Of a stretch of 32,000 nt of DNA, positions 8,441-32,000 are shown one piece after another (the first letter of the stretch is position 1; every line of letters begins with the position of its first letter). The stretch is from an uncultured archaeon (lineage in GTDB: Archaea; Iainarchaeota; Iainarchaeia; Iainarchaeales; Iainarchaeaceae), in NCBI GenBank assembly GCA_964577555.1, contig CAZNZM010000004.1, positions 1 through 32,000 of the forward strand, given 5' to 3'. A program made the position numbers and the translations under genes. The notes below the pieces were generated by a model, which was not told the DNA's origin, made no database searches, and worked only from the letters and a program-made list of their open reading frames with translations.

Positions 8441-8449
8441 GTGTTTTAT

Positions 8450-9172: not shown

Positions 9173-9178
9173 AAAAAA

Positions 9179-9862: not shown

Positions 9863-9971
9863 CAAATCTATATAGAAAAACAATTCTTTTGTATTTATAT
9901 CTTTTCATGCTGATCAAATACAGCGAAACCTCAAAAAAATATTTATAATAACATAAACACCAAAGTCCTAT

Positions 9972-10778
9972 ATGAAAAAACCTTCAAAAAAAATAATGAT
10001 AAAAAAAATAATGAATTTTGCAACACTAATTATGATTATAATAACCACAAACACCATTCTTGCCGTAAAATCCGAAAACCTTGAAATAAACATAGAATTG
10101 GAAAAAACAGGGGGCGCAAAAATAACAGAAAATTACAAACTGAGTTTTATAAGCGAAATTGACTCGGATAACTTCAAAAAAAGCGCAATAAAAAACGGTT
10201 CAAGCTTTTTGGCGTGGCAAGCAGAATACGAATTCATAAAAAAACACATAAACGCGGAAAACCTAACAAGCAACACTACAATAGCTTATGAAGAAAACAC
10301 AAATATTTTAACCCTAAGCTATGTTGAAAAAAACCTTGCAGAACTCACAAAACAAGAACAAAGAGCAGATTACTTTAAAATAGATGAAAAAAAACTATCA
10401 GCATTCAACGAAAGAGGCAGCATCACGATACCTGAAAACACAAAAATAACAATAACACTGCCGCCAAACTCTGAAGTCATTACAACAAACTTATCGCCGA
10501 AAGTAAAAGTGTTCGGCAACCAAATAATACTGCAAGGAATTACAAGCAACTCAATGACAATAAACTACATCCTGAACAAACCAATAATCGGTGAAGGAAA
10601 CGACATTATAAAAGGCGTGCCAAACGCTTACATAATAATCGCAATAGCAACAATAATAATAATATTAATACATCTCAACAGGGACGAATTTGAAAAAAAA
10701 ATAGAAGAGTTCATAGTAGAACACTCAGAAATAAAAGCAAAAAGAACGTCTGAAGAAATAGACTTTGATTTGGATTAA
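9972..10778 (+). CDS. Hypothetical surface protein with an N-terminal signal/anchor and a C-terminal TM anchor
   Basis: 268 aa. N-terminus 'KKIMNFATLIMIIITTNTILAVKSE', C-terminal TM 'AYIIIAIATIIIILIHL' followed by an acidic tail, and several N-x-S/T sequons. I recognise no family. Confidence 0.65.
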   Translation: MKKPSKKIMIKKIMNFATLIMIIITTNTILAVKSENLEINIELEKTGGAKITENYKLSFISEIDSDNFKKSAIKNGSSFLAWQAEYEFIKKHINAENLTSNTTIAYEENTNILTLSYVEKNLAELTKQEQRADYFKIDEKKLSAFNERGSITIPENTKITITLPPNSEVITTNLSPKVKVFGNQIILQGITSNSMTINYILNKPIIGEGNDIIKGVPNAYIIIAIATIIIILIHLNRDEFEKKIEEFIVEHSEIKAKRTSEEIDFDLD

Positions 10779-12736: not shown

Positions 12737-14380
12737 ATGCCAACAATTGAAATAAGCAAAAAAGACTTTGAAAAACTTTACGGAAAAAAACTCACAACAC
12801 AAGAAATAGAAAATGCTTTAACTTACGTAAAAGGAGAAATTGAAAGTATTGAAGAAGACACAATAAAAATAGACATCAAAGAAACCTTAAGACCTGACTT
12901 GTGGAGCACAGAAGGAATAATCAGAGAAATAAAAGCAAGAACCGGAATGGAAAAAGGAATACCAGAATACAAAACGCAAAAATCACAACTGCAAATACAA
13001 ATAGAAAAAAGCGTAAAAGAAGTAAGGCCATGCACAGTAGCAGCAATAGTAAAAGGAATCAAAATAACAGAAGAACTACTTATACAAATAATACAACTCC
13101 AAGAAAAAATACATATGACATATGGAAGAAAAAGAAAAGAAGCCGCAATAGGAATTTACGATTATGACAAAATAAAAGGAAACATAAAATATTACGGCGC
13201 AAACCCGACAGAAAAAAAATTCATTCCATTAGAATACAAAAACGAAATGAATTTAGAAGAAATACTCGAAACACACCCAAAAGGAAAAGAATATGCTCAC
13301 CTACTCAAGGGACACAAATTATACCCGATTTTTGAAGACGAAAAAGGAAACGTACTTTCAATGCCCCCCATCATAAATTCCAACTACTCTGGAAAGGTGA
13401 CCAAAGAAACAAAAAACCTATTTATAGAAGCAAGCGGGTTCTCAAACGAAACATTAATGCCGGCACTAAACACAATAGCAATGGCATTGGCAGACAGAGG
13501 AGGAAAAATAGAAACAGTAACCATCATAGACCCAGACGGAAAAAAAATAACCACGCCAAACTTTGAAAACAAAAAAATAGAAATAGACATACAAAACATG
13601 AAAAAAATAACAGGCATGCAATTAGAAGAAAAAGAAATAACAGAACTATTGGAAAAAGCAAGATACAAAATCACAAAAAAAACCGACAAAAAAATACAAT
13701 TAGAATATGGAAATTACAGAAACGACATTTTACACGAAGTTGACGTATTCGAAGACATATTAATAGGATACGACTACAACAAAATCAAGCCAGAAATACC
13801 AAAAATGGCAGTAACAGGAAACGAAAAAAAAGAAACAAAAATAATTGACAAAGCAAGAGACGTATGCATAGGAATGGGATTACAAGAAGTACTCACATTC
13901 ATCCTAACCTCAAAAGAAAAACAAGAAAAAATGGTAAAATTAGAAAATGAAGAATTTGTAGAAATAGCAAACCCGGTTTCAGCAAATTGGGCAGTGCTAA
14001 GAAAAAACCTCTACCCGGAACTCCTAGAATTCCTCTCAAAAAACAAATCAAAAGAATACCCGCAAAAAATATTTGAAGTAGGCAAAACAGTTGAACTTGA
14101 CAATACAACAGACACCAAAACAACAGAAAAAAACAAAATATGCATCATGGTATCGGCAAAAGACACAGGATTTACACAAGCAAAATCAATGTTAGAAGCA
14201 ATTGCAAGAGAATTCAACAAAAAAATACAGATAAAAGAAACAAAAAACCCGAGCCTGAAAAAAGGCAAATGCGCAGAAGTCACCGGAGAATTAAAAGGAA
14301 TAATAGGCGAAATTTCAGAACAAGTACTCACAAACTTTAACATAGAAATGCCAACAATCATGATTGAAATAGAAATTTAA
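12737..14380 (+). CDS. pheT: Phenylalanine--tRNA ligase beta subunit, archaeal type
   Basis: The ATG at 12737 is preceded by 'aggtga' ~7 nt upstream. N-terminus 'MPTIEISKKDFEKLYGKKLT ... RPDLWSTEGIIREIK', the B3/4 region, and the typical ~545-aa size. It lies 13 nt downstream of pheS. Confidence 0.95.
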   Translation: MPTIEISKKDFEKLYGKKLTTQEIENALTYVKGEIESIEEDTIKIDIKETLRPDLWSTEGIIREIKARTGMEKGIPEYKTQKSQLQIQIEKSVKEVRPCTVAAIVKGIKITEELLIQIIQLQEKIHMTYGRKRKEAAIGIYDYDKIKGNIKYYGANPTEKKFIPLEYKNEMNLEEILETHPKGKEYAHLLKGHKLYPIFEDEKGNVLSMPPIINSNYSGKVTKETKNLFIEASGFSNETLMPALNTIAMALADRGGKIETVTIIDPDGKKITTPNFENKKIEIDIQNMKKITGMQLEEKEITELLEKARYKITKKTDKKIQLEYGNYRNDILHEVDVFEDILIGYDYNKIKPEIPKMAVTGNEKKETKIIDKARDVCIGMGLQEVLTFILTSKEKQEKMVKLENEEFVEIANPVSANWAVLRKNLYPELLEFLSKNKSKEYPQKIFEVGKTVELDNTTDTKTTEKNKICIMVSAKDTGFTQAKSMLEAIAREFNKKIQIKETKNPSLKKGKCAEVTGELKGIIGEISEQVLTNFNIEMPTIMIEIEI

Positions 14381-14609
14381 AAAAAACAAATTCAAAAAAA
14401 AGCTAGAAAAAAAACCCGACTTTCAAAAAAAATAATGAATTTTAAAAATAAAAAAACAAAAAAAATAAATGGCTAAAAAAATAAGAACACAAAAACCAAA
14501 CAAAAAAAAGACAAAAAAAATCGCTTAAAAAAAACCACTCAAAAAAAACAAGCTAAACCGACAATCAAAAGCAAAAAAAATGAAACCAAACAAAAAAATA
14601 ACACAAAAA
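14381..14609. repeat. A-rich/T-poor intergenic block at a convergent junction
   Basis: ~230 nt with the same composition and words ('aaatggctaaaaaaa', 'gctagaaaaaaaa') as the other blocks. No credible ORF. Confidence 0.7.
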
Positions 14610-16001
14610 TCAAAACAATTTTGTTTGCTTGGAAACATCATCCGAATTCTTCTGCTTTGAAACAGAACTAGATTCGTTCAAACCATCATCTTCAAACCTG
14701 AAAGAATTTGAAAAAAACCTCGGCTTTGACAATTTCGCTTTAAGTTCTTGCGCATCCGCAAAAATAGATTGCACAACTTTTGTTTCAGGGCTTTTCCCCA
14801 ACAAAAAACCAATCTCGTTCTCGTCAAAATCAAAAACAGCGGAAAGAGAAACTGCATTCTCACGCTTGCTGAAAATGTCTTTAAGAAAAGGCAAATCAGA
14901 TTTCATAACTTCTTTAGAAGAAGAGTGAATTTTTGAACCTATTTTCTTACCCAATTCTCTTTTCAAAGAACGCAAAGGAGAAGACTTTGAAAGAGTTGAA
15001 AGCAAAGAAGGAAATTGATAAGCCACAAAATCAAAATTAGGCCCGGATTTTGAAAGACAAACACCTTCAGCTGCAAGCTCAGTACTATAAGCCAAAAAAC
15101 CCCAATGCTGACGCCTATAAATCCTGCCATTAAAAACATCAGAACGGGAAAGCGTATCAAAAGCATTAGCCACATCAACAGGATTTTTATATTGCCGCGG
15201 AATATTTTCATCAACCCAATTGAAAAGCATGTCAGGGCTTAGATCCGAACGCAACCTAGCTTCCCTTGCATCAGAAAACAATTTACCCCTAAAAATAGAC
15301 TTCATGACTTCAAATACTTTCTGCTGTCTCTCGCGCGACGCAACCAATTTCACAGCATCTATAGAAACTTTTCCTGAAAAAGAAACAGACTGCAAATCCA
15401 AAAGAGCGGAACGCATATCACCACCAGAGTTTTTGGCTAGCTCTTCAACAGCCTCATTGTCAAACGGAACTTTTTCAAGAAAAAGAATTTCACGAAGCCT
15501 TTTAGCAATCGAAACATAATTTATTTTTTTGAACTCCAAAACCTTACACACAAAACGCAATTGAGAAACACTTTTTTCCGAAAAAATGTCATTAGCAGTG
15601 AGCATTATAGGATTAAAAGAATTTTTTATCAAAGAAGCCACTGCACCAACCCCGCCCCTGTCAACAGACGACATGGCATCAATCTCATCAATCAATATAA
15701 GGCGCTTTGAACCTGAAAAAGAAGAATTTTGCGAAGCAGCCCCAACCACCCTTTCAATAACATCCTTGGACCTCAAATCAGAACTATTCAACTCCAAAAT
15801 ACTCCAACCAAATTTTTTCGCAACCAAATAAGCAAGACAAGTTTTGCCAGTCCCAGTATAACCCCAAAGAAGAAGAGGCGGCAACCTCTCTCCAGAATTC
15901 CAAAGTCTAGCCCATTCCAGCACAGAATCCAAAACTTCGCTATTACCAATGAATTCGCGCTCAGTTATTGGAAAATATTTATCAGTCCAAAGCATACTCA
16001 T
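14610..16001 (-). CDS. rfcL: Replication factor C large subunit
   Basis: The ATG at 16001 (or 15995) gives 'MSMLWTDKYFPITEREFIGN'. Walker A 'LLLWGYTGTGKTCLAYLVA', 'ELNSSDLRSKD' and Walker B 'LILIDEID' are present. The 13-aa 5' extension in the ORF track looks spurious. Confidence 0.9.
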   Translation of the reverse strand: MSMLWTDKYFPITEREFIGNSEVLDSVLEWARLWNSGERLPPLLLWGYTGTGKTCLAYLVAKKFGWSILELNSSDLRSKDVIERVVGAASQNSSFSGSKRLILIDEIDAMSSVDRGGVGAVASLIKNSFNPIMLTANDIFSEKSVSQLRFVCKVLEFKKINYVSIAKRLREILFLEKVPFDNEAVEELAKNSGGDMRSALLDLQSVSFSGKVSIDAVKLVASRERQQKVFEVMKSIFRGKLFSDAREARLRSDLSPDMLFNWVDENIPRQYKNPVDVANAFDTLSRSDVFNGRIYRRQHWGFLAYSTELAAEGVCLSKSGPNFDFVAYQFPSLLSTLSKSSPLRSLKRELGKKIGSKIHSSSKEVMKSDLPFLKDIFSKRENAVSLSAVFDFDENEIGFLLGKSPETKVVQSIFADAQELKAKLSKPRFFSNSFRFEDDGLNESSSVSKQKNSDDVSKQTKLF

Positions 16002-16045
16002 AACAAACCAACAACAAAACAATAAAAATAAATTTGCCAAAAAAA

Positions 16046-17158
16046 TTATAATACGCCCCTAGGAATCCTGCTTACAAACTCCCTAGTATTGCCTTTATGC
16101 CCCAAAGAAATATTTTTTGACGAAATAAAATTTCGCCTTTCCAAACTTGAAAGTATTTCCCTGAGCCTGCGCTCTTTTAACTTGCCATTGAATTTTTTTG
16201 AATAAATTTCATAAATTTTGCCAGAAGTTATTGGCTGATTGTTTGAAATTATTTTCACAATAACAAATTCATCAGAAGACAAATGCTTCAAACCTTTCAC
16301 CAAAGAAGCTGAATCAACCTGCTCAAAAGCTAATTTCAAATGCGAAAGAGAAACCCTTGGCGAATTTTTTGATTCGGCAATACGGCCAGCCCTAAGCAAC
16401 GACTCTATTGCAATCCTGCAATCCCCTCCAAGTTTTGCAGCATGCGCAGCAGCAACCCCAATAACATCAGGCTCCAAAACACCACTGCAAAAAGCAAGCG
16501 AAGCCCTATTTGAAAGAATTGACTTCAATTGGCTTGGAGAATAAGGCTCAAAATTAACAACATGCCCCGCAAGAGAACTCCTTATACGCGAATCCAAGTG
16601 AGAAATAAGAGAAACATCATTAGAAATCAATATAACGCCTATGAAATTGGCACCATACTCAAAAAGACGAACCAAATCATACAACAATTTTTCCCCTTCA
16701 ACAGAAGCAACAAGCTGATCAACTTCATCAAGAACAACTATAGGAGTATAACTTGATTTAGGGAGAAATTCCAAAAGCTTTGAAAAAATCTCGTCAGTAC
16801 CAAAACCCCTGCGAGGCAAGGCAGCACCTACAAAATTTGCAAGAGCAATTAAAACAGAAGACCGAGAATTATACTCAAAACAATTCAAGTAAATGGATTT
16901 CACACGGCTATTAGTTTCCTCAAGCTGCGAAAGAACATACCTTGCACAAACAGTTTTACCCACGCCTGTCGGCCCAACCAAAAAAACATTAATGGGCTTC
17001 CGATTTTCAAGCAAAGGCCTAAAACAATAAGCAATAGACTCCAATTCGCTTTCACGCCCAGGCAATTTATCAGGAATAAAATCAGGATAAAGGCAACTCT
17101 CGTCAAGAAAAATAGTATTCTCTTTCCCGAACCTTGAAAAAAGATTTTTGCCAGACAT
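16046..17158 (-). CDS. cdc6: Orc1/Cdc6 replication initiator
   Basis: 370 aa. 'LPGRESELESIAYCFRPLL', Walker A 'LVGPTGVGKTVCARYVL', Walker B 'VVLDEVDQL' and a C-terminal winged helix ('ITSGKIYEIY ... LREILSSLERRNFIS'). It lies 44 nt upstream of rfcL on the same strand. Confidence 0.95.
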   Translation of the reverse strand: MSGKNLFSRFGKENTIFLDESCLYPDFIPDKLPGRESELESIAYCFRPLLENRKPINVFLVGPTGVGKTVCARYVLSQLEETNSRVKSIYLNCFEYNSRSSVLIALANFVGAALPRRGFGTDEIFSKLLEFLPKSSYTPIVVLDEVDQLVASVEGEKLLYDLVRLFEYGANFIGVILISNDVSLISHLDSRIRSSLAGHVVNFEPYSPSQLKSILSNRASLAFCSGVLEPDVIGVAAAHAAKLGGDCRIAIESLLRAGRIAESKNSPRVSLSHLKLAFEQVDSASLVKGLKHLSSDEFVIVKIISNNQPITSGKIYEIYSKKFNGKLKERRLREILSSLERRNFISSKNISLGHKGNTREFVSRIPRGVL

Positions 17159-17270
17159 AATTAAAAAATACGATCAGCGAATTAAAAACCATTACACTTG
17201 GGCAAAAAAAGCAGAAAAAAACCACAAAAAAATGAAATCATTAAAAATACTTAACACAAGAAGAATTACT

Positions 17271-17606
17271 ATGTCAAGCGGACATGACAGCCACGGACAT
17301 GGCGAAAGCCACTCGGAAACCAAGACAAAAGACAAAAACAACATGTTTGACGAAACAATTGACAAACTCGCAAAAAGAATTGAAAACTACATAACAGGCG
17401 GAATAAGCAAACTAATAGCAGCAATACTTTTTCTAATCACAATAGGCGCGGCATATGGCTACCTAGCAGCAAGCAGAGGAGAACCAATAGCAGAATATTT
17501 TATAATAGCACCAGCAGTAGCAGGACTTATAGCATATTACAACAGATCTTTTGCAGTAATACTATTTATCATTCTAGTAGCAATACTTTTACTAGTACCG
17601 TTATGA
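17271..17606 (+). CDS. Small membrane protein with a His-rich N-terminus
   Basis: The ATG at 17271 gives 'MSSGHDSHGHGESHSETKTKDK...', followed by three hydrophobic segments. An alternative ATG is at 17232. A TATA-like 'ttaaaaatactt' sits ~20-30 nt upstream of 17271. The gene ends 9 nt before the ArsR-type gene. Confidence 0.55.
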   Translation: MSSGHDSHGHGESHSETKTKDKNNMFDETIDKLAKRIENYITGGISKLIAAILFLITIGAAYGYLAASRGEPIAEYFIIAPAVAGLIAYYNRSFAVILFIILVAILLLVPL

Positions 17607-18371: not shown

Positions 18372-18563
18372 ATGCAAAACAAAGAAAGAGCCCAAGTATC
18401 TTTAGAAATGATAATAATAATCGCAGCACTAGTGGCAATAGTACTACTGCTTGTAAATCAACTGCAAAAAACAGCAGAACAAGGGGCGAAAGCAATTGAC
18501 AAAAAAGCAACAACAATTTTCAAAGAAATTGAAGACATCAAACAAAGCACAAATAACACTTGA
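18372..18563 (+). CDS. Small archaeal type IV pilin-like protein (class III signal peptide)
   Basis: 63 aa. 'MQNKERA|QVSLEMIIIIAALVAIVLLLV' has a short basic leader, Ala at -1, Glu at +5 and a ~20-aa hydrophobic helix, followed by a short polar tail. Confidence 0.8.
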   Translation: MQNKERAQVSLEMIIIIAALVAIVLLLVNQLQKTAEQGAKAIDKKATTIFKEIEDIKQSTNNT

Positions 18564-18924
18564 ATTCATGCTAATACTTGCCGCATGCATAGCATTCATA
18601 TCGGTTTTTACAACTATGGCAATTAAAATACAAGAAATGGCAAAAAATTCTATTAATGAAAAAAACATAGAGATGACAACAAAAAAAATTTCTAATGCTG
18701 CAAAAACACTAACAATGCTTGGAGAAGGATCTTCAATAAAATATACAAACATTGGCGAAGCTAAAATTATTCAAAAAGGAAAAAAATGCATCATTGAAAC
18801 AACACACAATAAAACAAAATACTTTGAATTAGAAGAAATCAACTGCCAAAATGAAATAGAAACAAAAAACAAAACAATCATAATCAAAAAAAACCAAGGA
18901 AAAATAACAATCCAGGCAAAATAA
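18529..18924 (+). CDS. Type IV pilin-like protein (class III signal peptide)
   Basis: ORF 18496..18924. An in-frame TTG at 18529 would give 'MKTSNKA|QITLEFMLILAACIAFISVF' with Glu at +5. The ATG at 18496 would give a 17-aa leader. With either start the gene overlaps the preceding pilin gene by 35 or 68 nt in another frame. The ectodomain has 2 Cys. Confidence 0.7.
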   Translation: MKTSNKAQITLEFMLILAACIAFISVFTTMAIKIQEMAKNSINEKNIEMTTKKISNAAKTLTMLGEGSSIKYTNIGEAKIIQKGKKCIIETTHNKTKYFELEEINCQNEIETKNKTIIIKKNQGKITIQAK

Positions 18925-19455
18925 AAAAAAACAAAAAAACAAACAACAAAAAAACAAAAAAAACACTCGAATTGCAAAAAAAACAACCCACCAAACAAAA
19001 AACAAAAAATAAAAAAAATCAACTCACAAAAAAAAACAAAATCCAAAATTAAAAAAAACAAAAAAACAATGACAAAAAAAATGGCTCACAAAAAAAACAA
19101 ACCAAATTAAAAAAAAAAAAACAAAAAATGACAAAAAAATCAACCAACAAAAAAAAAGAATCAAAAAAAAAGCAAAAAAAACTAGCCAAAAAAACAATTA
19201 AAAAAAATAAATTGACTTGAAAAACAAACAATAAAAAAAATAAAAAAAAACAGCCAAGAAAAAAAATAATTCAAAAAAAACAGCTCGCCAAAAAAAACAA
19301 TTAAAAAAATATAGAAAAAATCGGCTCACAAAAACAAACAACTTGACAAAAAAATACCAAAAAAAAGAAAAATGACAAAAAAACGGCTCACCAAAAAAAA
19401 CAAACAAAAAAAACAACCTACCAAACAAAAAACAAAAAAAAACAAAAAAATGAAT
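18925..19455. repeat. Long A-rich/T-poor intergenic mosaic repeat block at a convergent junction
   Basis: ~530 nt. It contains copies of modules seen at ~2751-2825, ~8239-8370 and ~8060-8100, plus one diverged copy of the 60-nt tandem unit (~19321-19385). The ORFs here are poly-F or poly-K artefacts. Confidence 0.85.
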
Positions 19456-19794
19456 TCAAAGAGACAAACCTATTTCAACACTATAAAAACCACAATTAAG
19501 TTCAACAAAATCAAAAACCTCACCAACACCGCCAGAAACAACCTCCCTGCCACCAAACCAAAGAGAATAATTTCCAACGCCAAGAAAAAAATCAGCGTCA
19601 GATTTAAGTTCATCAACACCAACACCACAACCAGAATAACTCCAAACAACCAACAAATCCCTAATTTTTTGTATTTTAACCAAATTAACCAAACCTGAAT
19701 TATTATGCAAAAAAAAACCCGAAGCGAAAAATAAAAGAAAAACCAAAAGCAAAAAACACAAAACCGACTCAAAAGAAAAAAAACCCCTATTCAC
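19456..19794 (-). CDS. Pilin-like protein, 4th gene of the minus-strand pilin operon
   Basis: 112 aa with a GTG start. 'MNRG|FFSFESVLCFLLLVFLLFFA' has Gly at -1 and Glu at +5. The ectodomain has 2 Cys. It overlaps the upstream gene by 8 nt. Confidence 0.65.
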   Translation of the reverse strand: MNRGFFSFESVLCFLLLVFLLFFASGFFLHNNSGLVNLVKIQKIRDLLVVWSYSGCGVGVDELKSDADFFLGVGNYSLWFGGREVVSGGVGEVFDFVELNCGFYSVEIGLSL

Positions 19795-20239
19795 TGCAAA
19801 CCACTACACCCAAAACGCCTTTTTTATCAATATAATGCTCCAACAAAACAAACCTTTCAAACACAACACAATCGCCCTTTACAGAATCAAAATAAAATTT
19901 CTTCCCATTTTTACCAACCAAATACAAAGCAGAAACCGAATACTTGCCAAAATAAGAAGGCCTGGCTTTGGAAAGCAACGAAACATCAACAACATTTGAA
20001 AACAACCGCTTTTTTTCGGAATCAAAATAAGCAGAACCAAGCAAAGAATTTTCCAAATCCCTATTCTTAACCAAAGATTCAGAAATTGAAAAACCAAACA
20101 AAAACAATTCATTATTGACAATTTCATCAGAATACCATTGCAAAGCCCCGACAACAAAATACACTATCAAAAGAAAACCAAAAAAAACGAAAAGAAAAGA
20201 AACCAAAGAATCAAAAGAAAAAAACAAACCCTTAACCAT
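19787..20239 (-). CDS. Pilin-like protein, 3rd gene of the operon
   Basis: The real start is probably Met-96 of ORF 19787..20524 (ATG at 20239), giving 'MVKGLFFSFDSLVSFLFVFFGFLLIVYFVV', which parallels the 'MNRGFFSFES' of its neighbour. The ectodomain has 2 Cys. It overlaps the upstream gene by 8 nt. The 95-aa 5' extension overlaps a better ORF and is low-complexity. Confidence 0.65.
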   Translation of the reverse strand: MVKGLFFSFDSLVSFLFVFFGFLLIVYFVVGALQWYSDEIVNNELFLFGFSISESLVKNRDLENSLLGSAYFDSEKKRLFSNVVDVSLLSKARPSYFGKYSVSALYLVGKNGKKFYFDSVKGDCVVFERFVLLEHYIDKKGVLGVVVCSE

Positions 20240-20540
20240 AATGCAACCTTCCCTTGAAAAAATACTTGCCTGATAAAGAAAAAACCAAACGATAAAAAGC
20301 ACCATCAAAAACTTTTTTTGAAGAAAAAAAACCAGAACACTTTTCAGGCAACAAAATATAACCATCTGAATGAGAAAAAAACAAATTTCCAATAGAAACA
20401 CAAACAGACAAACTTGACTTATAAGAAAGGGAATCAATAGCTGAAGAAAAACCGGACAAAAAATCTCTCTCAACAACCAATAATACGCTAACAACACAAA
20501 AAATGCACAACAAAGCAACAACAAAATCCAAAGAAATCAT
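20232..20540 (-). CDS. Pilin-like protein, 2nd gene of the operon
   Basis: 102 aa. 'MISLDFVVALLCIFCVVSVLLVV' has Asp at position 5 and no basic leader. There are 2 Cys after the helix. Its ATG overlaps the upstream stop (ATGA). Confidence 0.6.
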   Translation of the reverse strand: MISLDFVVALLCIFCVVSVLLVVERDFLSGFSSAIDSLSYKSSLSVCVSIGNLFFSHSDGYILLPEKCSGFFSSKKVFDGAFYRLVFSLSGKYFFKGRLHYG

Positions 20541-21064
20541 GGCAATGACACCACAACAGATTGCGAATAACCCTTAGGAAGTCTAAAAAAAGAAGTATAA
20601 TCCCCTTGCTTTATTTCAGCACAAGGAAAAAAACCCTCAATAGTTCCAGAAATAAAATACTTCAAAACAACAAAATTGCCAGACCGAAAAACAATAAACT
20701 TAGTGGCAGAGGCAAGCAAAGGCAATGACAAAGGAAAAATTTTTTTTACGCCAAAAGGAGAATCAACACAAAGACTGATTGAACCAAAATTTGAATTCAA
20801 CACGTTGAACAAAGAATAATCAATAAACGACTTGGCAACGGAAGAATCAATAGGAAAGACTGCAGAACCGCGAAGCGCATTGCCAACAGCCAAATCTATA
20901 GAAACCTCAGCCTTGGTTCGCAAAAAATCAGCAGAAGAAACCGAATAAGCCAAATATTCAGACATTTGCAAATCCGAAAAAACAAAACTTGAAAAATAAT
21001 AAACCAAAAAAATTACTTGAAAAGCAAAAAGCAACAAAACAGAACCGGAAAAACCTTTAAACAT
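20537..21064 (-). CDS. Pilin-like protein, 1st gene of the operon
   Basis: 175 aa. 'MFKG|FSGSVLLLFAFQVIFLVYYF' has a short basic leader ending in Gly and then a hydrophobic helix. The ectodomain has 2 Cys. Confidence 0.65.
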   Translation of the reverse strand: MFKGFSGSVLLLFAFQVIFLVYYFSSFVFSDLQMSEYLAYSVSSADFLRTKAEVSIDLAVGNALRGSAVFPIDSSVAKSFIDYSLFNVLNSNFGSISLCVDSPFGVKKIFPLSLPLLASATKFIVFRSGNFVVLKYFISGTIEGFFPCAEIKQGDYTSFFRLPKGYSQSVVVSLP

Positions 21065-21852: not shown

Positions 21853-22521
21853 ATGATGAAAAAAACAAAATCAACTATAATAATCACAGGAATAATCATT
21901 CTTACAATATTGGGACAAGGCTGCTTGAAAGAAACAATTGAAAAAAAAGACAAAAACGAAGCTTGCAAAGAAATAATATGCAAGGAAAAATGCGACGGCA
22001 CAACACTAAATTATGACGGAAAATGCATTGAAGGAAAATGCTATTACGCAATAGAAACATACTCGCCAAAATGCAAATCAGCACCACCAGCAGACACCAT
22101 AATCCCAAAAAAACCAGAATACGCTTTTGACACCAAACTACTGCTATGCGACTACGACAAAGCAATGAAAAAATACACCTTAATCTACCAAATAACAAAC
22201 AAAAGCGAAAAAACAATACAACACGGCTCTACAATATGGCTCAAAGTTCTTCAAACAGAATACGCATCACCAAGAACAATACAAAACACATACAAACCTG
22301 GAAAAATACTATGGGAAGAAATGAAAATCAATTATCTTGACAAATCTTACATAGGACAATCATGGCAAATAAGAGACGTGAATTCAGACCAACCACTTGA
22401 TTTCCAATTAATATTCTGCGAACCAAACTTTTCTGAAAAAAACAAATGCGACACATACAACGGCTACCTATTAACAAGCGGAAACATACTTGAAATATGC
22501 AAACAAAACAAAACAACATAA
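21853..22521 (+). CDS. Cys-rich putative lipoprotein
   Basis: 222 aa. The signal 'MMKKTKSTIIITGIIILTILGQGC' ends in a lipobox-like Cys, and 10 further Cys follow. I recognise no family. Confidence 0.65.
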   Translation: MMKKTKSTIIITGIIILTILGQGCLKETIEKKDKNEACKEIICKEKCDGTTLNYDGKCIEGKCYYAIETYSPKCKSAPPADTIIPKKPEYAFDTKLLLCDYDKAMKKYTLIYQITNKSEKTIQHGSTIWLKVLQTEYASPRTIQNTYKPGKILWEEMKINYLDKSYIGQSWQIRDVNSDQPLDFQLIFCEPNFSEKNKCDTYNGYLLTSGNILEICKQNKTT

Positions 22522-26756: not shown

Positions 26757-28532
26757 TCAAGACTCTTTTAAATTATCATAAACTGAAACCCTGATAGAAA
26801 TCTTAACAGAATTTGACACACCCTTGTCATTAGAAACAGTAAGAAAAACATTGTGGTCACCAACATCATTAACACTAAAAGTTTTGGAAAAAGTTTTGCC
26901 TTCAACAGGCTCAGAATCATCAACCCTCCAAACCCAAGAAACAATTTTATTGCCAAGAGGATCAAAAGAATTGCTCCAAAAATCGACATCAACATCATTG
27001 CTTTCAGAAGTTATTATTACCGGATTTAGCGGAGAAAAACCTATCAAAGCAACAGGCTTCAAAGACAAAGGAGAAACAGAAACAACATCATACGGCTCCT
27101 GTTTTTTATAAACCCAAATCTTAACCTCTCTTTGAGTCCCATCCTTCAACGGCAAAGTCTTATTCACAACATACCTTTCCGCATTATCCTTTTTTGTACC
27201 AAACTCAAACTTCTTGCCAACAACAGCATCAATCGTTGAAATTATGCTCTCTTTCAACAACGAAATGTCACAACCACCTGAACTACAATCAATAATATTT
27301 CCCTTGCTTACTCCGTCACCGCCTGCAAGCAACGCCATATGCTCCTTTATCTTGTTAATAGTTTCAGGGTTTGAATGCAAACCGGAAGAAGGAAAAGAAA
27401 CACAATTAAGTTTGCCATTACAATCAACACAATCATTCGAAGTAACACAAAGATTGCCGACAGAATCGCAAATAGGCGGAGCTCCATTGCCTTTAGGATC
27501 GGTAAAAATCGGAACAACTCTATAATCATAATTCTTAAGAACAGAAATAGCGTGATTCACAAAAACAAGAGAACGATTGCCATTACTCAAATTACAAGTT
27601 TTATAATAAACCCTAACGTTACTGCCAGTTTCTTGATAACTATAAGGAGTATCAGACTCAGAACCAGAACTCAATTCATCAGAAGCCGGAAATATAAAAG
27701 TCACGGTTGGAAACTCCGACTCCATCCTTGCCTCTGGAACTTCCTTGGCAACATAAGCCGAAGCAGTAGCCCAATCCTCGTAAAACTCTCCTTTAAGAAT
27801 GTTCATATCTGGACTGCAATTAGACATGCAACAAATACGGGCTGGAAACTTGTCAACACCAACAAAATAAGGGCTTTGTGGGTTTTTAAGCGAATCCACA
27901 AAATACTTATTATAAATACCAACCCCCAAAGAAGGACAAACATTGCCTGTGTTTGTCACAGGTATTTTATGGTCGGCTTCAATATAAGAACAATCAATAT
28001 CAATACTGGTACAATCAAACGAATTATTAGTATTGGTTTTTAGAATGAAAACTTTCTCTTCAAAAATAAAATCCCCCTTGGTGCGAAAAAAAGACTTTAT
28101 GTCAGGGATTATAACATTCAATTTGTCAATATCGTCACGCATGCTGTCAGAACCATCGACAATGAAATAAAGCCTTATTTTCATTTTAGGCGGAATAATC
28201 TCCATATAATAATTTTCTTTCCCATAAATAGAGTCAAATATTTTTTCAACAATCTCCTTTCTATTAACATTTTGCCCATAATAATTGAAATCATAAGACC
28301 ATGAATATATCATGTCACCCATCAACTGTGCAACACTCATCTTAATGGTTGGTTCTTCAATCTGCAAAATCTCTCCAAAATCTGCTGAAATACGATGCTG
28401 TTCAAAAGCAATCTTATTGCTTTCAAAAACCTTTACGGCTTGGTCAAGCTGATTGAATTGAATCAAAGCCCAACCAGAAAGAAGCATGACAACAATAATT
28501 ACTATTGCAATAATATCTGAAACCGCAGACAT
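26757..28532 (-). CDS. Pilin-anchored vWA-PKD protein (candidate pilus tip adhesin)
   Basis: 591 aa. The N-terminus 'MSAVSDIIAIVIIVVMLLSGWALIQ' is a pilin-type helix with Asp at position 6 (the S-x-V-S-D motif, +5 counted from Ser-2). 'RLYFIVDGSDSMRDDIDKL' is a vWA beta-strand with a DxSxS MIDAS motif (nt ~28143-28157). A Cys-rich middle region brings the total to 14 Cys. The C-terminal PKD-like domain reads 'FWSNSFDPLGNKIVSWVWRVDDSEP...HNVFLTVSNDKGVSNSVKISIRV' (nt ~26784-27056). Confidence 0.85.
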   Translation of the reverse strand: MSAVSDIIAIVIIVVMLLSGWALIQFNQLDQAVKVFESNKIAFEQHRISADFGEILQIEEPTIKMSVAQLMGDMIYSWSYDFNYYGQNVNRKEIVEKIFDSIYGKENYYMEIIPPKMKIRLYFIVDGSDSMRDDIDKLNVIIPDIKSFFRTKGDFIFEEKVFILKTNTNNSFDCTSIDIDCSYIEADHKIPVTNTGNVCPSLGVGIYNKYFVDSLKNPQSPYFVGVDKFPARICCMSNCSPDMNILKGEFYEDWATASAYVAKEVPEARMESEFPTVTFIFPASDELSSGSESDTPYSYQETGSNVRVYYKTCNLSNGNRSLVFVNHAISVLKNYDYRVVPIFTDPKGNGAPPICDSVGNLCVTSNDCVDCNGKLNCVSFPSSGLHSNPETINKIKEHMALLAGGDGVSKGNIIDCSSGGCDISLLKESIISTIDAVVGKKFEFGTKKDNAERYVVNKTLPLKDGTQREVKIWVYKKQEPYDVVSVSPLSLKPVALIGFSPLNPVIITSESNDVDVDFWSNSFDPLGNKIVSWVWRVDDSEPVEGKTFSKTFSVNDVGDHNVFLTVSNDKGVSNSVKISIRVSVYDNLKES

Positions 28533-28955
28533 TCAAACACCTTTAAAGCAAAAATAAACCCGGCCAAGGCATTTTTGCCCCTTACTATTAATAATATTCA
28601 CGACGTAAGAATATTTCCTTTCACAAGAATCATTATTGCCTATTGCCCAAGACTTTTCACTACAACCAAGAAAATTTTCCATTTTGACAACATAACCGGA
28701 AACAACAGGAGTAGTACAATTAGAATTAATGCCAAACCTATCAAACTTGTTTTCGTCAAAAGTGCCAATGCAACGAAAAACAAAATCCCTTACTTGCCCG
28801 CTTTCCTGAAGAGGCTTTATTGAAGGAGTAAGCTGATTTACCGGAACAATAGAAGAATAACCAATATAAACAAGAAACAAAACAACAAAAACAATTATGA
28901 CAACAAGCATAAAAGTTGAAATCATAGAATAAATGCCTCTACAATCCATTGACAT
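28533..28955 (-). CDS. Cys-rich pilin-like protein
   Basis: 140 aa. 'MSMDCRG|IYSMISTFMLVVIIVFVVLFLVY' has a basic leader ending in Arg-Gly and then a hydrophobic helix. There are 6 Cys after the helix. The stop abuts the next gene's ATG (28532). Confidence 0.7.
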   Translation of the reverse strand: MSMDCRGIYSMISTFMLVVIIVFVVLFLVYIGYSSIVPVNQLTPSIKPLQESGQVRDFVFRCIGTFDENKFDRFGINSNCTTPVVSGYVVKMENFLGCSEKSWAIGNNDSCERKYSYVVNIINSKGQKCLGRVYFCFKGV

Positions 28956-29367
28956 CTATTCTGCCCCCGTTTTTTCTGTTCACCAAAAGCTCGGTTACAT
29001 AAGCAAGGTTAATGCTCAAATTAGAATCTGTACTGCAAAGCAAGATTCTGCATTGCATTATCTCGCCTGAATCAAAACAAATATTATTATCCCTAACCAA
29101 AAACAAGCCTTTTTCAGTCAAAGGATTATACTTATACTTGAAATTATAAGAAGCACAAGCATCATTAATCAAAGTCTGCATTTTAGTAACATCATTCTGA
29201 ACCCGCTCGGCTTCAGGCCTCAAATTCTTGAAATTACCCAAAAGCCACATAGAAGCAAGCAATATAGCAGTTATAACTGCCAACCACAAAACAACATCTG
29301 ACACCAAACTAGCCTTTGAATTCAAATTCAAAACATTCAAATCAGGCTTTGCACTCAATTTTAACAC
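28939..29367 (-). CDS. Cys-rich pilin-like protein
   Basis: 142-aa ORF with a GTG start. An in-frame TTG at ~29325 would give 'MNSKA|SLVSDVVLWLAVITAILLAS' with Asp at +5. There are 4 Cys after the helix. The N-terminal helix is paralogous to that of the 29342..29800 product. Confidence 0.7.
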   Translation of the reverse strand: MLKLSAKPDLNVLNLNSKASLVSDVVLWLAVITAILLASMWLLGNFKNLRPEAERVQNDVTKMQTLINDACASYNFKYKYNPLTEKGLFLVRDNNICFDSGEIMQCRILLCSTDSNLSINLAYVTELLVNRKNGGRIDVNGL

Positions 29368-29800
29368 CGCCCTTAACCCTTAAAAAAGAACAAGTAAAAT
29401 CAGTTACTGAAAAAGCTTCCCTGTGAAAAGTAGTGTCAAGGTTCAAATCATAATCCTGCGGAGGACAAGAACATTTTACACAATTACTACTGCCTTGAAA
29501 CTCCATACAAATTTTACTGCCAGAAGACCTGGCAAAAACAACAGAACCGCTTGCAAGAGGAAACTTTTCAGACAACAAAGTGTCAACAGCAGAATTGCAA
29601 ACAAATTCGCACTTCTGCCCCATTCTTGCAAGCGAATTTTTTATTTGCTGGAGTTTTTGTTGATCAGAACCGGTAGAAACCAAATTAGCCACTATTAAAA
29701 GCCCAAAAACAGCTGTTATTACGCCAACATAGAGCCAAACAGCCTGATCCACAAAATCTCCCCAAAATGAAAGCAAATATAGACATTCATGAACATTCAA
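29342..29800 (-). CDS. Cys-rich pilin-like protein
   Basis: 152-aa ORF with a TTG start and no in-frame ATG at the 5' end. '...SFWG|DFVDQAVWLYVGVITAVFGLLIVANLV'. There are 8 Cys after the helix, including 'SNCVKCSCPP'. The start is uncertain. Confidence 0.65.
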   Translation of the reverse strand: MNVHECLYLLSFWGDFVDQAVWLYVGVITAVFGLLIVANLVSTGSDQQKLQQIKNSLARMGQKCEFVCNSAVDTLLSEKFPLASGSVVFARSSGSKICMEFQGSSNCVKCSCPPQDYDLNLDTTFHREAFSVTDFTCSFLRVKGGVKIECKA

Positions 29801-30356
29801 TGTCTATTGCACCATCGCCATCGCTGTCAAATGCACTGGAAAACCAATGAAACTTTTTATCATCATCAGACAAACCAGCATAACACCCGCCAGGCTTGAT
29901 GAATTGCATCAAAAGCTCGGTGGCTTCCTCTCTTGACTTGCCTTCTCTTTTCCAATAATTGCAAAGAAGATCCTTGCACGAAGACATATTCAAATTGGAA
30001 GAGCCGCAAGAAGTCAAAAGAGAACAATAAACCTTGTCGTCACAAACACCAACCCCTGCCTTGAAGCCAGTATTATTATACGACGGAAGAGCCCCCTGCT
30101 TCAAACGAAAATCAAAAGATTTTATGCAAAACTGCGCCAAACTATCAGCATCTCCAGCAGCACACAACCTTGAACATTCAGTCTTGCCACTGGAAATCTT
30201 GTTTTCAAAAGCGGCTTTATCCTGCTCCTCCTGAATTTTAGTGCCCTGCTCCTTGAACTGCTGAGAAACAAGCTGCAAAACCAGCATTGCAACAGCCAAA
30301 AGAACAAAAAGCACAATGAATATTTGAATTGCCATTTCCATTCCTTTCTGATTCAT
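29787..30356 (-). CDS. Cys-rich pilin-like protein with a C-terminal acidic D-x-D-G-D-G loop
   Basis: 189 aa. 'MNQKG|MEMAIQIFIVLFVLLAVAMLVLQLV'. There are 10 Cys after the helix. The C-terminus is 'FDSDGDGAIDIECS'. Its ATG overlaps the upstream stop (ATGA). Confidence 0.75.
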   Translation of the reverse strand: MNQKGMEMAIQIFIVLFVLLAVAMLVLQLVSQQFKEQGTKIQEEQDKAAFENKISSGKTECSRLCAAGDADSLAQFCIKSFDFRLKQGALPSYNNTGFKAGVGVCDDKVYCSLLTSCGSSNLNMSSCKDLLCNYWKREGKSREEATELLMQFIKPGGCYAGLSDDDKKFHWFSSAFDSDGDGAIDIECS

Positions 30357-30763
30357 GTTTTTACCTCCACTTTACCTTTATCAACATTCCAATTTATAAA
30401 AAAAGTTTTTACGCTTGCTTTCTCAACATTGCCAAGCACGTTGACATCGCCAACCAAAGCAACCAAATTCTCAGGAACAATATTATACGGTTCGTTAGAA
30501 TGAACAGTAAAACAAATACCGCTATGCAAATTCACACCATAATTCTTATTATAACACTCTTTTATCAAAGCAACCACTTCCCTGTCCGAAACAGAAGTAA
30601 CATCAATAAGATCAGCTCCTGTTGGCGGCTTTTTATCCCCACCAAAAAAACCCAAAATAGAATTCTTTCCAGCACCTATAAGATCCTGACTGAAATTAAT
30701 TACAAGAGTGCCAACTACCAAAACTATGAACAAGGTTATTATCAATTGAACAGGCATCTCCAT
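30353..30763 (-). CDS. Pilin-like protein
   Basis: The ORF opens with GTG at 30775. The ATG at 30763 gives 'MEMPVQLIITLFIVLVVGTLVINF', which shares the 'MEM-x-x-Q' start with the mature end of the next gene's product. It has 2 Cys. A 116-nt spacer upstream holds the TATA-like 'tttaatttaaatatttt' on the minus strand. Confidence 0.7.
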   Translation of the reverse strand: MEMPVQLIITLFIVLVVGTLVINFSQDLIGAGKNSILGFFGGDKKPPTGADLIDVTSVSDREVVALIKECYNKNYGVNLHSGICFTVHSNEPYNIVPENLVALVGDVNVLGNVEKASVKTFFINWNVDKGKVEVKT

Positions 30764-30891
30764 AAAAAAAACCACTCAAAACAAGAATAAAACGATTTCA
30801 AAATATTTAAATTAAACGCTTAAAGAACTTTCCAAAAAAACAAACTTGTCCTATAAACAACAAAAAAATAATGACGATTAGGCAAAAAAAA

Positions 30892-31323
30892 TCAAGTTAT
30901 TTTCAACGCATGATTCCCGTTTTCATTGCAAGAAATATTTAAAATCCTTGGCAAAACAAGCGGCGGATTGTCAATCAAAATGCGACAATCAGTACAATAA
31001 TTCATTTTTCTAAAAAAATTATTCAATTTAGCTTCGTCGAGCTCCCCAATTTTGTTGCCATCAAAAGACTCGTCAAGAAGAACAACATTGCCGCAATCCT
31101 TATAAACTTCGCCAAACTGGCACTCTTGCCAACAATAATTAAGCTTTGCCGCAAACTTTGGAAAATTAACTTTGGTTAGGCTTGGTCCGTTGGCAGGAGG
31201 AATAAACATGTTCCTTACAGTATCACCAATCTTGTTAAAATCAAATTGAAAAACAAAAGCGGTTATCAAACCAGCAACTATAATAGTGAAAAAAAGAAAA
31301 CCAACAATTTCAATTGTTTCCAT
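30892..31323 (-). CDS. Cys-rich pilin-like protein (leaderless type)
   Basis: 143 aa. 'METIEIVGFLFFTIIVAGLITAFVF' has Glu at position 5 and no basic leader. There are 6 Cys after the helix. Confidence 0.7.
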   Translation of the reverse strand: METIEIVGFLFFTIIVAGLITAFVFQFDFNKIGDTVRNMFIPPANGPSLTKVNFPKFAAKLNYCWQECQFGEVYKDCGNVVLLDESFDGNKIGELDEAKLNNFFRKMNYCTDCRILIDNPPLVLPRILNISCNENGNHALKIT

Positions 31324-31327
31324 AACA

Positions 31328-31405
31328 TCACTTCAACATGCTTGTAACATACAATATAATCGCTCCAAAAGCTATTACTGCAATAATAACTTCAATCACA
31401 ACCAT
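31328..31405 (-). CDS. Candidate 25-aa micro-ORF encoding only a pilin-type helix (speculative)
   Basis: My own translation of the 93-nt spacer gives 'atggttgtgattgaagttattattgcagtaatagcttttggagcgattatattgtatgttacaagcatgttgaagtga', that is MVVIEVIIAVIAFGAIILYVTSMLK. Glu is at position 5, as in 'METIE' of the next gene. The T-rich minus strand readily produces hydrophobic ORFs by chance. Confidence 0.25.
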   Translation of the reverse strand: MVVIEVIIAVIAFGAIILYVTSMLK

Positions 31406-31416
31406 TATTGTTTGAT

Positions 31417-32000
31417 TCACCTGACAAGCACCCCTTTGAAAATAATTTCAGTGAAAGCATAATAACCGCCAAACAACAAAGCACTATAAATCAAAAAAGA
31501 AATGGCAAGATTCTCGTAAATGGTTTTTGCAATTTTATATTTGTCCGTGCCATCCCTTATATTTGAAAGAAAAAGAGAAAGTATAATAGAAGTTTCAATA
31601 AAATACGCGCCAACAATTATCTCAAGAATAGTAGGAGGAATTATGTCTTTTATCTTCACAAGCTCAAGATTAATAGGATTACTTCCAACACTTGTCAATA
31701 CTTCATTAATCTTCTGCTTAATGAATTCAAGAGACATGACAATAGCAGCAGCCATTACAGTAGCAGTGGTTGCCAACAAAGGAGCCAACACCGTGACGGA
31801 AATACTTACAATAGAAACCGTTTCAGCCAAAAGAGTTTGAATATAATCATCCAACTTGTAAGTTGAAAGAGTCTGCTCCCTTATCATCTTGGCTGATTTG
31901 GCCGCGCTTTTCTGGTCAATCTCGGTAAAAATAACTATCCTCTTAATAATTTGAACCATGCGCCTTGAAGGTGCAACAGAAGGCAAAAACTTTTCAACCA
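31417..32000 (-). CDS. C-terminal part of a polytopic membrane protein, possibly a FlaJ/TadC/PilC-type pilus platform protein (5' end outside the window)
   Basis: The reading frame stays open to the window edge; the TTG at 31986 is only the ORF finder's start. There are at least 3 long hydrophobic segments separated by a soluble stretch. The family is inferred only from its position directly upstream of a row of pilin-like genes. Confidence 0.4.
   Translation of the reverse strand, partial: VEKFLPSVAPSRRMVQIIKRIVIFTEIDQKSAAKSAKMIREQTLSTYKLDDYIQTLLAETVSIVSISVTVLAPLLATTATVMAAAIVMSLEFIKQKINEVLTSVGSNPINLELVKIKDIIPPTILEIIVGAYFIETSIILSLFLSNIRDGTDKYKIAKTIYENLAISFLIYSALLFGGYYAFTEIIFKGVLVR

Follow-up and report, generated by a model that had tools for sequence, protein, structure and literature searches.

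We analyzed a 32,000-nt stretch of DNA from an uncultured archaeon of the family Iainarchaeaceae (GenBank assembly GCA_964577555.1, contig CAZNZM010000004.1, positions 1 to 32,000 of the forward strand; hereafter the window), and investigated a locus at its end whose products resemble subunits of type IV filaments. Seven tightly packed genes on the minus strand span positions 26757–31323 and are preceded by the cut end of a membrane-protein open reading frame (ORF; 31417–32000). In gene order, the longest ORFs encode 143, 140, 189, 152, 142, 140, and 591 amino acids. Genes 1 and 2 are separated by a spacer of 116 nt, and the successive overlaps among genes 2–7 are 4, 14, 26, 17, and 0 nt. An initial annotation, made from the sequence letters, had described this arrangement, and the ORF coordinates reproduce its gene positions, its five overlaps, and its 116-nt spacer. 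Its seven ORFs stand as drawn, but genes 2 and 4 start later than it supposed, and a mini-ORF at 31328–31420 had been overlooked.

The corrected start of gene 2 is the ATG at 30763 (MEMPVQ, 136 amino acids) and that of gene 4 is the GTG at 29752 (MDQAVW, 136 amino acids), both downstream of the longest-ORF starts. We placed the starts there because the longest ORFs in a locus ~85% identical to that of the window (L008) begin exactly at these positions; for gene 2, at most four non-leader codons lie 5′ of the ATG at 30763. A GGAGGT motif lies 7 nt before the ATG of gene 3. Directly after gene 1, an oligo-T region (30834–30891, minus strand) contains three runs of T7–8, resembling in sequence archaeal oligo-T terminators. 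Oligo-T runs end archaeal transcription. The TATA-like box that had been noted in the 116-nt spacer is also present, as TTTAAATA at 30804–30811 (minus strand), 40 nt before the ATG of gene 2, and its sequence makes it a probable archaeal TATA promoter for genes 2–7. Since the spacer holds both the T7–8 runs and the TTTAAATA box, the locus is probably read as two transcription units, the first comprising the ATPase and platform genes described below, the mini-ORF, and gene 1, and the second genes 2–7. Genes 6 and 7 share a reading frame and are parted only by a TGA codon (TGA ATG, 28530–28535, minus strand). Read-through of this codon was considered and rejected as unlikely, because the corresponding genes overlap out of frame in other loci and TGA ends other genes here.

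Each of the seven products has exactly one strongly hydrophobic segment, which falls within the first 45 residues, in agreement with the N-terminal hydrophobic helix proposed for all of them; no such segment occurs elsewhere in any of the proteins. The proposed richness in Cys also holds, at 1.5–5.9% of residues in the seven products versus 0–1.6% in nine housekeeping proteins of the window, and points to extracellular domains. A Pfam and NCBIfam scan of all seven proteins returned a single match, to the PKD domain of gene 7. As had been suspected, then, the six small ectodomains match no known family in these two collections. Each small gene has position-specific orthologues with conserved Cys, and hhalign comparisons among the six small families found likeness confined to the N-terminal helices.

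Gene 1 (30892–31323, minus strand, as are all seven genes) encodes 143 amino acids with 6 Cys and begins without a leader at METIEIV, with Glu at positions 2 and 5. This start follows from the orthologues, which begin MEVVEIV, MEAVELIV, and METIEIIV, and from an in-frame stop four codons upstream with no start codon between. From its sequence, gene 1 is a candidate for the shaft or the first subunit. Gene 2 (30353–30763) is likewise leaderless, a reading based on the longest ORF of L008 and on hhalign, and proteins at this position begin MEMPVQ or MELPIQ. The product of gene 3 (29787–30356; 189 amino acids, 10 Cys) has a class III-like leader, MNQKG/MEMAIQ, in which the slash marks the presumed cleavage boundary, and a DSDGDG acidic loop at its C-terminus. 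Its K/R-G/A boundary is kept in four other loci (L013, L011, L014, and L015) despite differing leaders. Gene 4 (29342–29752; 136 amino acids, 8 Cys) begins leaderless at MDQAVWLY, and its orthologues begin MEQAVWLY, MEQPIWLF, and MEQVVWTY, with no in-frame start codon upstream.

Gene 5 (28939–29367; 142 amino acids, 4 Cys) again has a class III-like leader, ending NSKA/SLVSDVV, with Asp at position +5. A word-index homologue search found three relatives of this gene, and the boundaries of its orthologues read KG/SITNE, KG/SISSE, RG/SSVST, and KA/SSMGN. Gene 6 (28533–28955; 140 amino acids, 7 Cys) has the leader MSMDCRG/IYSMIS and no acidic residue near its mature N-terminus. Leaders at this position are 7–17 amino acids long in at least five lineages, and all end in K/R-G directly before the helix, as in MSMDCRG/, MKLFNYTQSKRG/, and MRTTKSKYEENKTKNKG/.

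Gene 7 (26757–28532) encodes a leaderless modular protein of 591 amino acids with 14 Cys. We built an AlphaFold2 model of it from a 61-sequence alignment (pLDDT 87.3, pTM 0.84). The model comprises, in order, a long N-terminal helix, a small module, a von Willebrand factor A (vWA)-like domain with Cys-rich insertions, a beta-sandwich, and a PKD domain. DSSP assigned a continuous helix to residues 2–56 of the model (28365–28529, pLDDT 87–97), and this modeled length is that expected of type IV pilin alpha-1. The small alpha/beta module occupies residues 61–112, the vWA-like alpha/beta domain residues 108–445 (27198–28211), and the beta-sandwiches residues 453–585. The Cys-rich insertions of the vWA-like domain were modeled with low confidence.

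A Foldseek search of the PDB matched the vWA-like domain to integrin beta I-like domains (E = 8e-5, probability 0.99–1.0) and also to the Sec23/24 trunk. Both are vWA-type folds, and the vWA call for gene 7 rests on fold and motif. The region around the DGSDS motif is modeled as an alpha/beta domain with a pLDDT of 87, consistent with the vWA fold that had been predicted for it. The motif itself lies at residues 126–130 (28143–28157), DWAT at 253–256, and SDE at 284–286, such that D126-G-S128-D-S130, T256, and D285 are all present in the window protein. In the 61-member alignment, D126 is conserved in 57, S128 in 54, S/T130 in 58, and D285 in 54 sequences, while position 256, the Thr of the metal ion-dependent adhesion site (MIDAS), is T in 18, S in 13, and A in 20. 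The "intact DxSxS MIDAS" of the initial annotation is accordingly present and conserved as far as DGSDS is concerned, but position 256 is T or S in about half of the family.

No vWA profile hidden Markov model (HMM) in Pfam or NCBIfam matched gene 7. Below threshold, VWA_4 matched five of the 61 family members (best E = 0.0034), TssR_VWA four, VWA four, and Integrin_beta two; one member of the wider family is named "VWA domain-containing protein" by NCBI. When the family profile was searched against PDB sequences, only PKD was significant, with the integrin alpha-L I-domain at E ~0.2. Taking model and motif together, gene 7 appears to hold a vWA-like fold with a DxSxS site without being a member of the Pfam VWA family at threshold. 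The PKD domain (residues 516–582, 26787–26987) is better defined: PKD_4 matched residues 524–582 with 28.5 bits against a cut-off of 27, and Foldseek matched the PKD domains of ColG, ColH, and PrtV (E = 7e-6, TM 0.83–0.85). Its earlier identification is thus confirmed by both profile and fold. The PilY1 beta-propeller (PF05567) was matched neither by gene 7 nor by any of the 61 family members, and no pilin HMM of Pfam or NCBIfam matched gene 7.

A word-index search found four relatives of gene 7, and an exhaustive search with residues 1–500 revealed the family: 101 representative clusters at 50% identity, 44 of them below 1e-10. Nearly all of these clusters align from residues 1–4 of gene 7, and their labels include Diapherotrites/Iainarchaeum, Woesearchaeota, Nanoarchaeota, and Altiarchaeota. 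The N-terminal module is kept throughout the family; the C-terminal modules vary among PKD, Laminin_G_3 lectin, beta-helix, Ig-like, and peptidase domains. Swapping of C-terminal modules, as read from these sequences, is the pattern expected of adhesins.

Next, we compared the N-termini across positions. Among the seven genes, only genes 3, 5, and 6 encode K/R-G/A class III-like leaders. At these positions, leader length and sequence vary, and a K/R-G/A boundary precedes the helix in every lineage. At positions 1, 4, and 7, and usually at position 2, the protein starts directly with the helix; examples from position 7 are MSAVSD, MSVVEN, and METIEN. Genes 1, 2, 4, and 7 have Glu or Asp at position 5 or 2. 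None of the seven matches the class III signal family PF04021 (Class_IIIsignal). A pilin-type helix with either an acidic residue around +5 or a MEMxxQ start had been proposed for the whole set. The processing boundary is found in genes 3, 5, and 6 but not in the leaderless genes 1, 2, 4, and 7, and the acidic residue is found in gene 5 (Asp) and in genes 1, 2, 4, and 7 (Glu/Asp at 5 or 2) but not in gene 6.

Judged from the sequences, the leaderless starts are real and not an artefact of gene calling, because of upstream stops and the absence of in-frame start codons: an in-frame TGA sits immediately before the ATG of gene 7, and the big gene has no upstream in-frame start codon in six of seven loci. 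Of 103 sequences in the family of the big protein, 90 lack a leader, 89 of these with M at position 1. Position 5 of the 90 is E in 39 and D in 19 (58 acidic), and position 6 is N or D in 67. Eight of the 103 carry an MKKG-, MRKG-, or MKG-type leader ahead of the same N-terminal sequence, as in the pair MRKG/MIDKIF and MIDKIL. Similarly, position 2 has a leader in L011 (MNQKG/MEMAIQ) versus MEMPVQ in the window. In hhalign, residue 1 of the leaderless families fell on residue 6 of the processed family (probabilities 96% and 75%), the 96% being the value for the gene 2 family against the gene 3 family. Since the leader-bearing homologues and the hhalign register agree, the leaderless N-terminus appears from sequence comparison to correspond to the mature N-terminus of a processed pilin, with Met1 as +1. 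As in bacterial type IV pilins, the buried Glu/Asp is conserved in these subunits. A literature search for leaderless type IV pilins found nothing relevant.

The leaderless pattern could also be read in another way, in which only the products of genes 3, 5, and 6 are pilins, and those of genes 1, 2, 4, and 7 stay anchored in the membrane like FlaF/FlaG or PilN/PilO, with a static envelope complex or a membrane-tethered adhesin as the end product. However, the charged Glu/Asp at position 5 or 2 within the membrane helix is a known inter-subunit contact in pilins, and a plain anchor offers no reason for its conservation (58 of 90 in the big family). Single orthologous families also mix leader-bearing and leaderless members with the same sequence past the boundary, and the helix of the big protein is 55 residues long, not ~25. 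What speaks for permanent anchoring is that leaderless starts follow gene position strictly in every lineage, suggesting a distinct role, and that FlaF is a pilin-like archaeal protein without a class III signal that is monotopic and binds the S-layer (PMC4425475). On balance, we consider it improbable that the leaderless proteins are mere anchors.

To follow the locus past coordinate 32000, we took the sequence from a 55.6-kb JGI contig that carries the window's proteins. Immediately past the window end lie the remainder of a 622-amino-acid membrane protein, a 555-amino-acid T2SSE ATPase, and two coiled-coil proteins. The initial annotation had suggested looking upstream of 32000 for a FlaI/PilB-type ATPase, and this one on the same contig is of the FlaI/TadA type: it matches PF00437 with 68.6 bits against a cut-off of 24.9, and its best NCBIfam alignments are to FlaI (120.6 bits) and TadA (120 bits), both under the equivalog cut-offs. 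The ATPase of the bindosome, BasE, is among its closest NCBIfam matches (90 bits). The two soluble coiled-coil proteins (218 and 183 amino acids; L001, 5148–6365) directly before the ATPase have no family match and are kept in L011 as a pair of 207 and 188 amino acids; both may serve the machine as accessory components in the cytoplasm.

The membrane-protein ORF at the window's end (31417–32000, minus strand) holds the C-terminal 194 residues of the 622-amino-acid polytopic protein and is identical to P0121. The gene for this protein comes after the ATPase gene in every locus that holds an ATPase. Its relatives, labeled Diapherotrites, Micrarchaeota, and Woesearchaeota, are 37–72% identical and are called "hypothetical" wherever the source names them. 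T2SSF of Pfam gave no match for the window protein; among 38 members of its family, T2SSF matched two (best E = 0.03) and Spore_III_AB, which we take to be a GspF-like cytoplasmic domain, matched 18 (best E = 5e-7). The N- and C-terminal halves of the protein align with each other (E = 1e-4 over 202 columns), an internal repeat as expected of the two-repeat platform family. An AlphaFold2 model of the protein has a pLDDT of 84. In local Foldseek comparison, the only high-probability matches of this model were SpoIIIAB (probability 0.98) and cytoplasmic domain I of OutF, the platform of type II secretion (probability 0.87). A global Foldseek search with the model returned nothing significant, and single-sequence and profile searches of PDB sequences gave no useful match. 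Sequence and model together suggest that the 622-amino-acid protein is probably a very divergent platform of the GspF/TadC/FlaJ type.

Between the platform gene and gene 1 lies the mini-ORF (31328–31420, minus strand), whose 30-amino-acid product has a single hydrophobic helix (MNQTIMVVIEVIIAVIAFGAIILYVTSMLK). It begins at a GTG that shares bases with the stop codon of the platform gene (GTGA), and equivalents occur 3′ of the platform gene in L008 (30 amino acids), L013 (37), and L011 (93).

The same succession of genes, from the ATPase and platform through the mini-ORF and the six small genes to the big one, is found again across DPANN archaea, in contigs labeled Diapherotrites/Iainarchaeum, Woesearchaeota, Nanoarchaeota, and Altiarchaeota. 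The whole locus is repeated in L008. In the Woesearchaeota locus L013, where the big protein is 28% identical to that of the window, the genes are the ATPase, a platform of 621 amino acids, an ORF of 37, small proteins of 143, 132, 195, 134, 132, and 137, and a big protein of 467 amino acids. L014, with an Altiarchaeota label, keeps this order and has an additional gene where the spacer lies in the window; this insertion at the gene 1/gene 2 junction fits two transcription units. The pilin block and the ATPase-platform block are both present but swapped in L011 (big protein 34% identical) and are arranged divergently in the Nanoarchaeota locus L015. Two short Iainarchaeum contigs, L004 and L005, hold the last four genes only, with unrelated flanking genes. 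Gene order is therefore conserved in relatives, as had been anticipated, down to 28% identity of the big protein, and its recurrence in distant lineages indicates that the locus is not a chance assembly.

Some of these loci hold further genes. The extra gene in L014 (6631–7374) encodes a 247-amino-acid soluble, possibly HTH-like protein between pilin genes 1 and 2. In L013, two more large proteins come after the big vWA protein (7586–10405 and 12770–17584). One, of 939 amino acids, is extremely Cys-rich with an internal Hint/intein-like domain, and the other, a giant of at least 4521 amino acids encoded nearby, has FG-GAP and Laminin_G_3 domains. These two may likewise act at the surface or in adhesion.

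This conservation bears on the simplest alternative, that the seven genes encode unrelated secreted or membrane proteins that happen to lie beside a secretion ATPase, their helices being ordinary signal anchors and the vWA resemblance spurious. The six small proteins have no family, and the vWA and platform matches are sub-threshold, as such a reading would have it. However, the linkage to the ATPase-platform pair is kept across DPANN phyla, the K/R-G/A boundaries and the Glu5 pattern are conserved, and the integrin beta I-like Foldseek match has a probability of 0.99–1.0. An unrelated set of genes is, in our view, extremely improbable.

Instead, we think it reasonably probable that the locus, conserved across DPANN, encodes a tip or priming complex through which a type IV filament presents a vWA adhesin of modular build. 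The four checks that the initial annotation had named as able to refute its reading were all run, and none overturned it, the prepilin features being present but mixed. In such a machine, the FlaI/TadA-type ATPase and the two-repeat platform would extract the pilin-like subunits from the membrane, and the extracted subunits would stack through their N-terminal helices, the seven fixed-order subunits forming a priming or tip complex of set stoichiometry. The products of genes 3, 5, and 6 would be cut after K/R-G/A by a prepilin peptidase whose gene lies elsewhere, and those of genes 1, 2, 4, and 7 would be made already "mature," with Met1 at +1 and Glu/Asp at 5 or 2. Within gene 7, the long helix and small module would act as carrier and the vWA-like DxSxS domain and PKD as effector. 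Displayed at the filament's distal end, this protein would bind a surface ligand, possibly through its metal site and plausibly on a host cell. The shaft might be built from gene 1 or from a 63-amino-acid class III pilin encoded elsewhere in the window (18372–18563). Sequence and modeling establish the gene content, the identity of the ATPase, the synteny, the distribution of leaders, the fold of gene 7, and the variability of its C-terminal modules; the extraction and stacking of subunits into a filament, the tip position, metal-dependent binding, and host attachment are inferred from these.

Several observations weigh against this interpretation. Peptidase_A24 was detected neither among the scanned ORFs of the window nor, for any relative, among the genes up to 10 kb from the locus, and a regular-expression search for the GxGD(V)K peptidase motif over the window and all loci found none. 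Neither the platform nor the vWA domain of gene 7 reaches Pfam thresholds, and only about half of the family has T or S in place of the MIDAS Thr. No family match points to a pilin fold in the six small ectodomains. The leaderless subunits have no basic N-terminal flank to set an N-in topology, and the last four genes occur without a flanking ATPase in the two Iainarchaeum contigs, both short. Finally, the example of FlaF shows that signal-less pilin-like archaeal proteins can remain in the membrane and not join the filament (PMC4425475).

The same parts could also build something shorter, a pseudopilus or bindosome-like stalk in which the machine assembles the seven subunits alone, with gene 1 perhaps repeated, into a stub that pushes the vWA-PKD adhesin through the S-layer. 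The pseudopili of the type II secretion system and the bindosome of Sulfolobus are thought to work as such stubs. The operon encodes seven unlike subunits in a set order and no evident major pilin of high abundance, which would suit a stub, as would the presence of BasE (90 bits) among the closest NCBIfam matches of the ATPase, and functionalised machines of this kind are reported in the literature on archaeal type IV filaments (10.64898/2026.04.22.720090). On the other hand, gene 1 is transcriptionally apart and retains Glu5 like a polymerising subunit, and a canonical short class III pilin is encoded 8 kb away; the sequence itself offers nothing to tell a short filament from a long one. We regard a stub as unlikely, and continue to favor a filament with gene 7 at its tip.

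A more far-reaching version of the filament reading is that the locus represents a distinct DPANN filament lineage, in which four leaderless subunits out of seven, the vWA adhesin among them, enter the filament unprocessed with Met (or residue 2) as +1 and Glu5 in place, and in which the vWA tip protein is the host-recognition determinant. We put this forward only tentatively, as a possibility that we hold to be somewhat doubtful.

We then compared the locus with known systems. By analogy, the functionally closest proteins to gene 7 would be the bacterial pilin-vWA fusions that have class III leaders and sit at a filament tip with minor pilins, namely PilB of Streptococcus sanguinis (PMC8179133) and TadG/CpaL (PMC11870444). 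Like gene 7, PilB fuses a small pilin carrier with a long N-terminal helix to a bulky vWA-like DxSxS domain; modeling found the filament tip to be the sole place where it fits, and its gene lies among those of other minor pilins (PMC8179133). Unlike gene 7, which is leaderless and has no pilin HMM match, PilB has a canonical 7-residue class III leader and a bacterial N-methylation motif. The vWA domain of gene 7 is too divergent for Pfam, has Cys-rich insertions, and is followed by a beta-sandwich and PKD, and gene 7 has six fixed-order partners, whereas PilB has two. In TadG and Caulobacter CpaL, as in gene 7, a pilin-like module is linked to a vWA domain split by an insertion (PMC11870444), and the ATPase here is about equally close to TadA and FlaI. 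We detected no sequence similarity between gene 7 and TadG/CpaL. CpaL has a predicted G/A-X4-F/E cleavage site and gene 7 none, and the Tad system has two minor pilins compared with the six at this locus. The proposed complex can also be likened, as an analogous arrangement, to CpaJ/K/L.

In the minor pilin and PilY1 systems of type IVa pili and in GspHIJK, a block of several distinct low-abundance pilins ends in a large adhesin, possibly with a vWA domain. PilY1 is not itself a pilin and carries a C-terminal beta-propeller, for which gene 7 has no match. Gene 6 lacks the acidic residue, as do subunits of the GspK/PilX type, and in this recalls the top subunit of bacterial tip complexes. Bacterial minor pilins are all processed by the peptidase, in contrast to the leaderless genes 1, 2, 4, and 7 here. 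The comparison with PilY1 and TadG tip complexes made in the initial annotation, and the host-attachment role that it proposed, are reasonable as analogies.

Among archaea, the pilin- or archaellin-like FlaF and FlaG (ArlF/ArlG) combine an N-terminal helix with the lack of a class III signal peptide inside a type IV filament operon (PMC4425475). FlaF is a small beta-sandwich stator that binds the S-layer (PMC4425475), and we found no sequence or fold match to it here. Archaeal type IV filament systems with adhesins, in the portions of two censuses available to us, share with this locus one ATPase, a platform, several putative minor pilins rich in Cys, and a large protein resembling an adhesin (PMC4858521; 10.64898/2026.04.22.720090). 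The adhesin described in those portions is DUF2341/PilY-like and occurs in methanogens and subsystem 4A, and vWA proteins enter the corresponding text of the 2016 census solely as cytoplasmic regulators of the ArnB type (PMC4858521). The same portions of both censuses describe no pilin-anchored vWA family, no such leader pattern, and no such platform family (PMC4858521; 10.64898/2026.04.22.720090).

The machine type and the pilin-vWA logic are thus already known; what is new to the searched literature is a DPANN-wide module of seven subunits, an unrecognised platform, and leaderless Glu5 subunits. To our knowledge, neither a conserved Glu5 nor equivalence to processed paralogues has been reported for FlaF. 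For the means by which DPANN archaea recognise and hold their hosts, this locus is a concrete and conserved candidate: its putative distal protein keeps a vWA core and swaps C-terminal binding domains by lineage, as a specificity determinant would. If the reading is true, host recognition by these episymbionts would be determined by this tip protein with its vWA core and variable domains, and the leaderless subunits would call into question the rule that all type IV filament subunits need processing by a prepilin peptidase. With one exception, the database entries examined call the adhesin, the platform, and the six small subunits "hypothetical," and these proteins escape Pfam; censuses of archaeal pili are therefore likely to count this system too rarely. 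Tad pili derive from archaeal systems, and an archaeal pilin-vWA protein bears on the origin of bacterial TadG/CpaL.

The window also contains other pilin genes. The 63-amino-acid class III pilin mentioned above (18372–18563, plus strand; MQNKERA/QVSLEMIIII, ~56 residues when mature) matches PF04021 Class_IIIsignal with 26.0 bits against a cut-off of 23.7, and weakly also Flp1_like. Its sequence makes it a candidate shaft pilin for the machine, and its place outside the operon fits the stand-alone major pilins described for archaea (PMC4858521). Its presence indicates that the genome uses the class III route and implies that a prepilin peptidase exists. A second pilin of the QITLE type (18496–18924, plus strand; 142 amino acids, SNKA/QITLEF) reaches 21.2 bits with PF04021, under the cut-off. 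The two ORFs as listed overlap by 68 nt, and the 142-amino-acid ORF therefore probably starts later.

On the opposite strand, a second pilin-like operon of four genes with overlaps of 4, 8, and 8 nt occupies 19456–21064 (minus strand). The ORFs encode products of 175 (MFKG/FSGS), 102 (MISLDFVV), 150 (MVKG/LFFSFD), and 112 amino acids (MNRG/FFSFES). Three of the genes thus have K/R-G leaders, and the 102-amino-acid product is leaderless with Asp5, a mix like that of the main locus. None of the four products belongs to a Pfam family, and BLAST between the window's two pilin clusters found no significant match.

Between the convergent pilin genes lies a non-coding tract of ~530 nt (18925–19455) that is extremely A-rich on the plus strand and hence, on the minus strand, shows one oligo-T run after another. 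It contains degenerate periodic units such as CAAAAAAAC, with a recurring GGCTCAC, and falls within the window's lowest-GC part (GC 0.276 over 18–20 kb). A Cys-rich protein of 222 amino acids (21853–22521, plus strand) with a lipobox-like N-terminus (ILGQGC) and no family match sits between the second pilin operon and CDC48. The remainder of the window is ordinary archaeal housekeeping, including LonB, the alpha and beta subunits of PheRS, RFC, Cdc6, CDC48, and NFACT.

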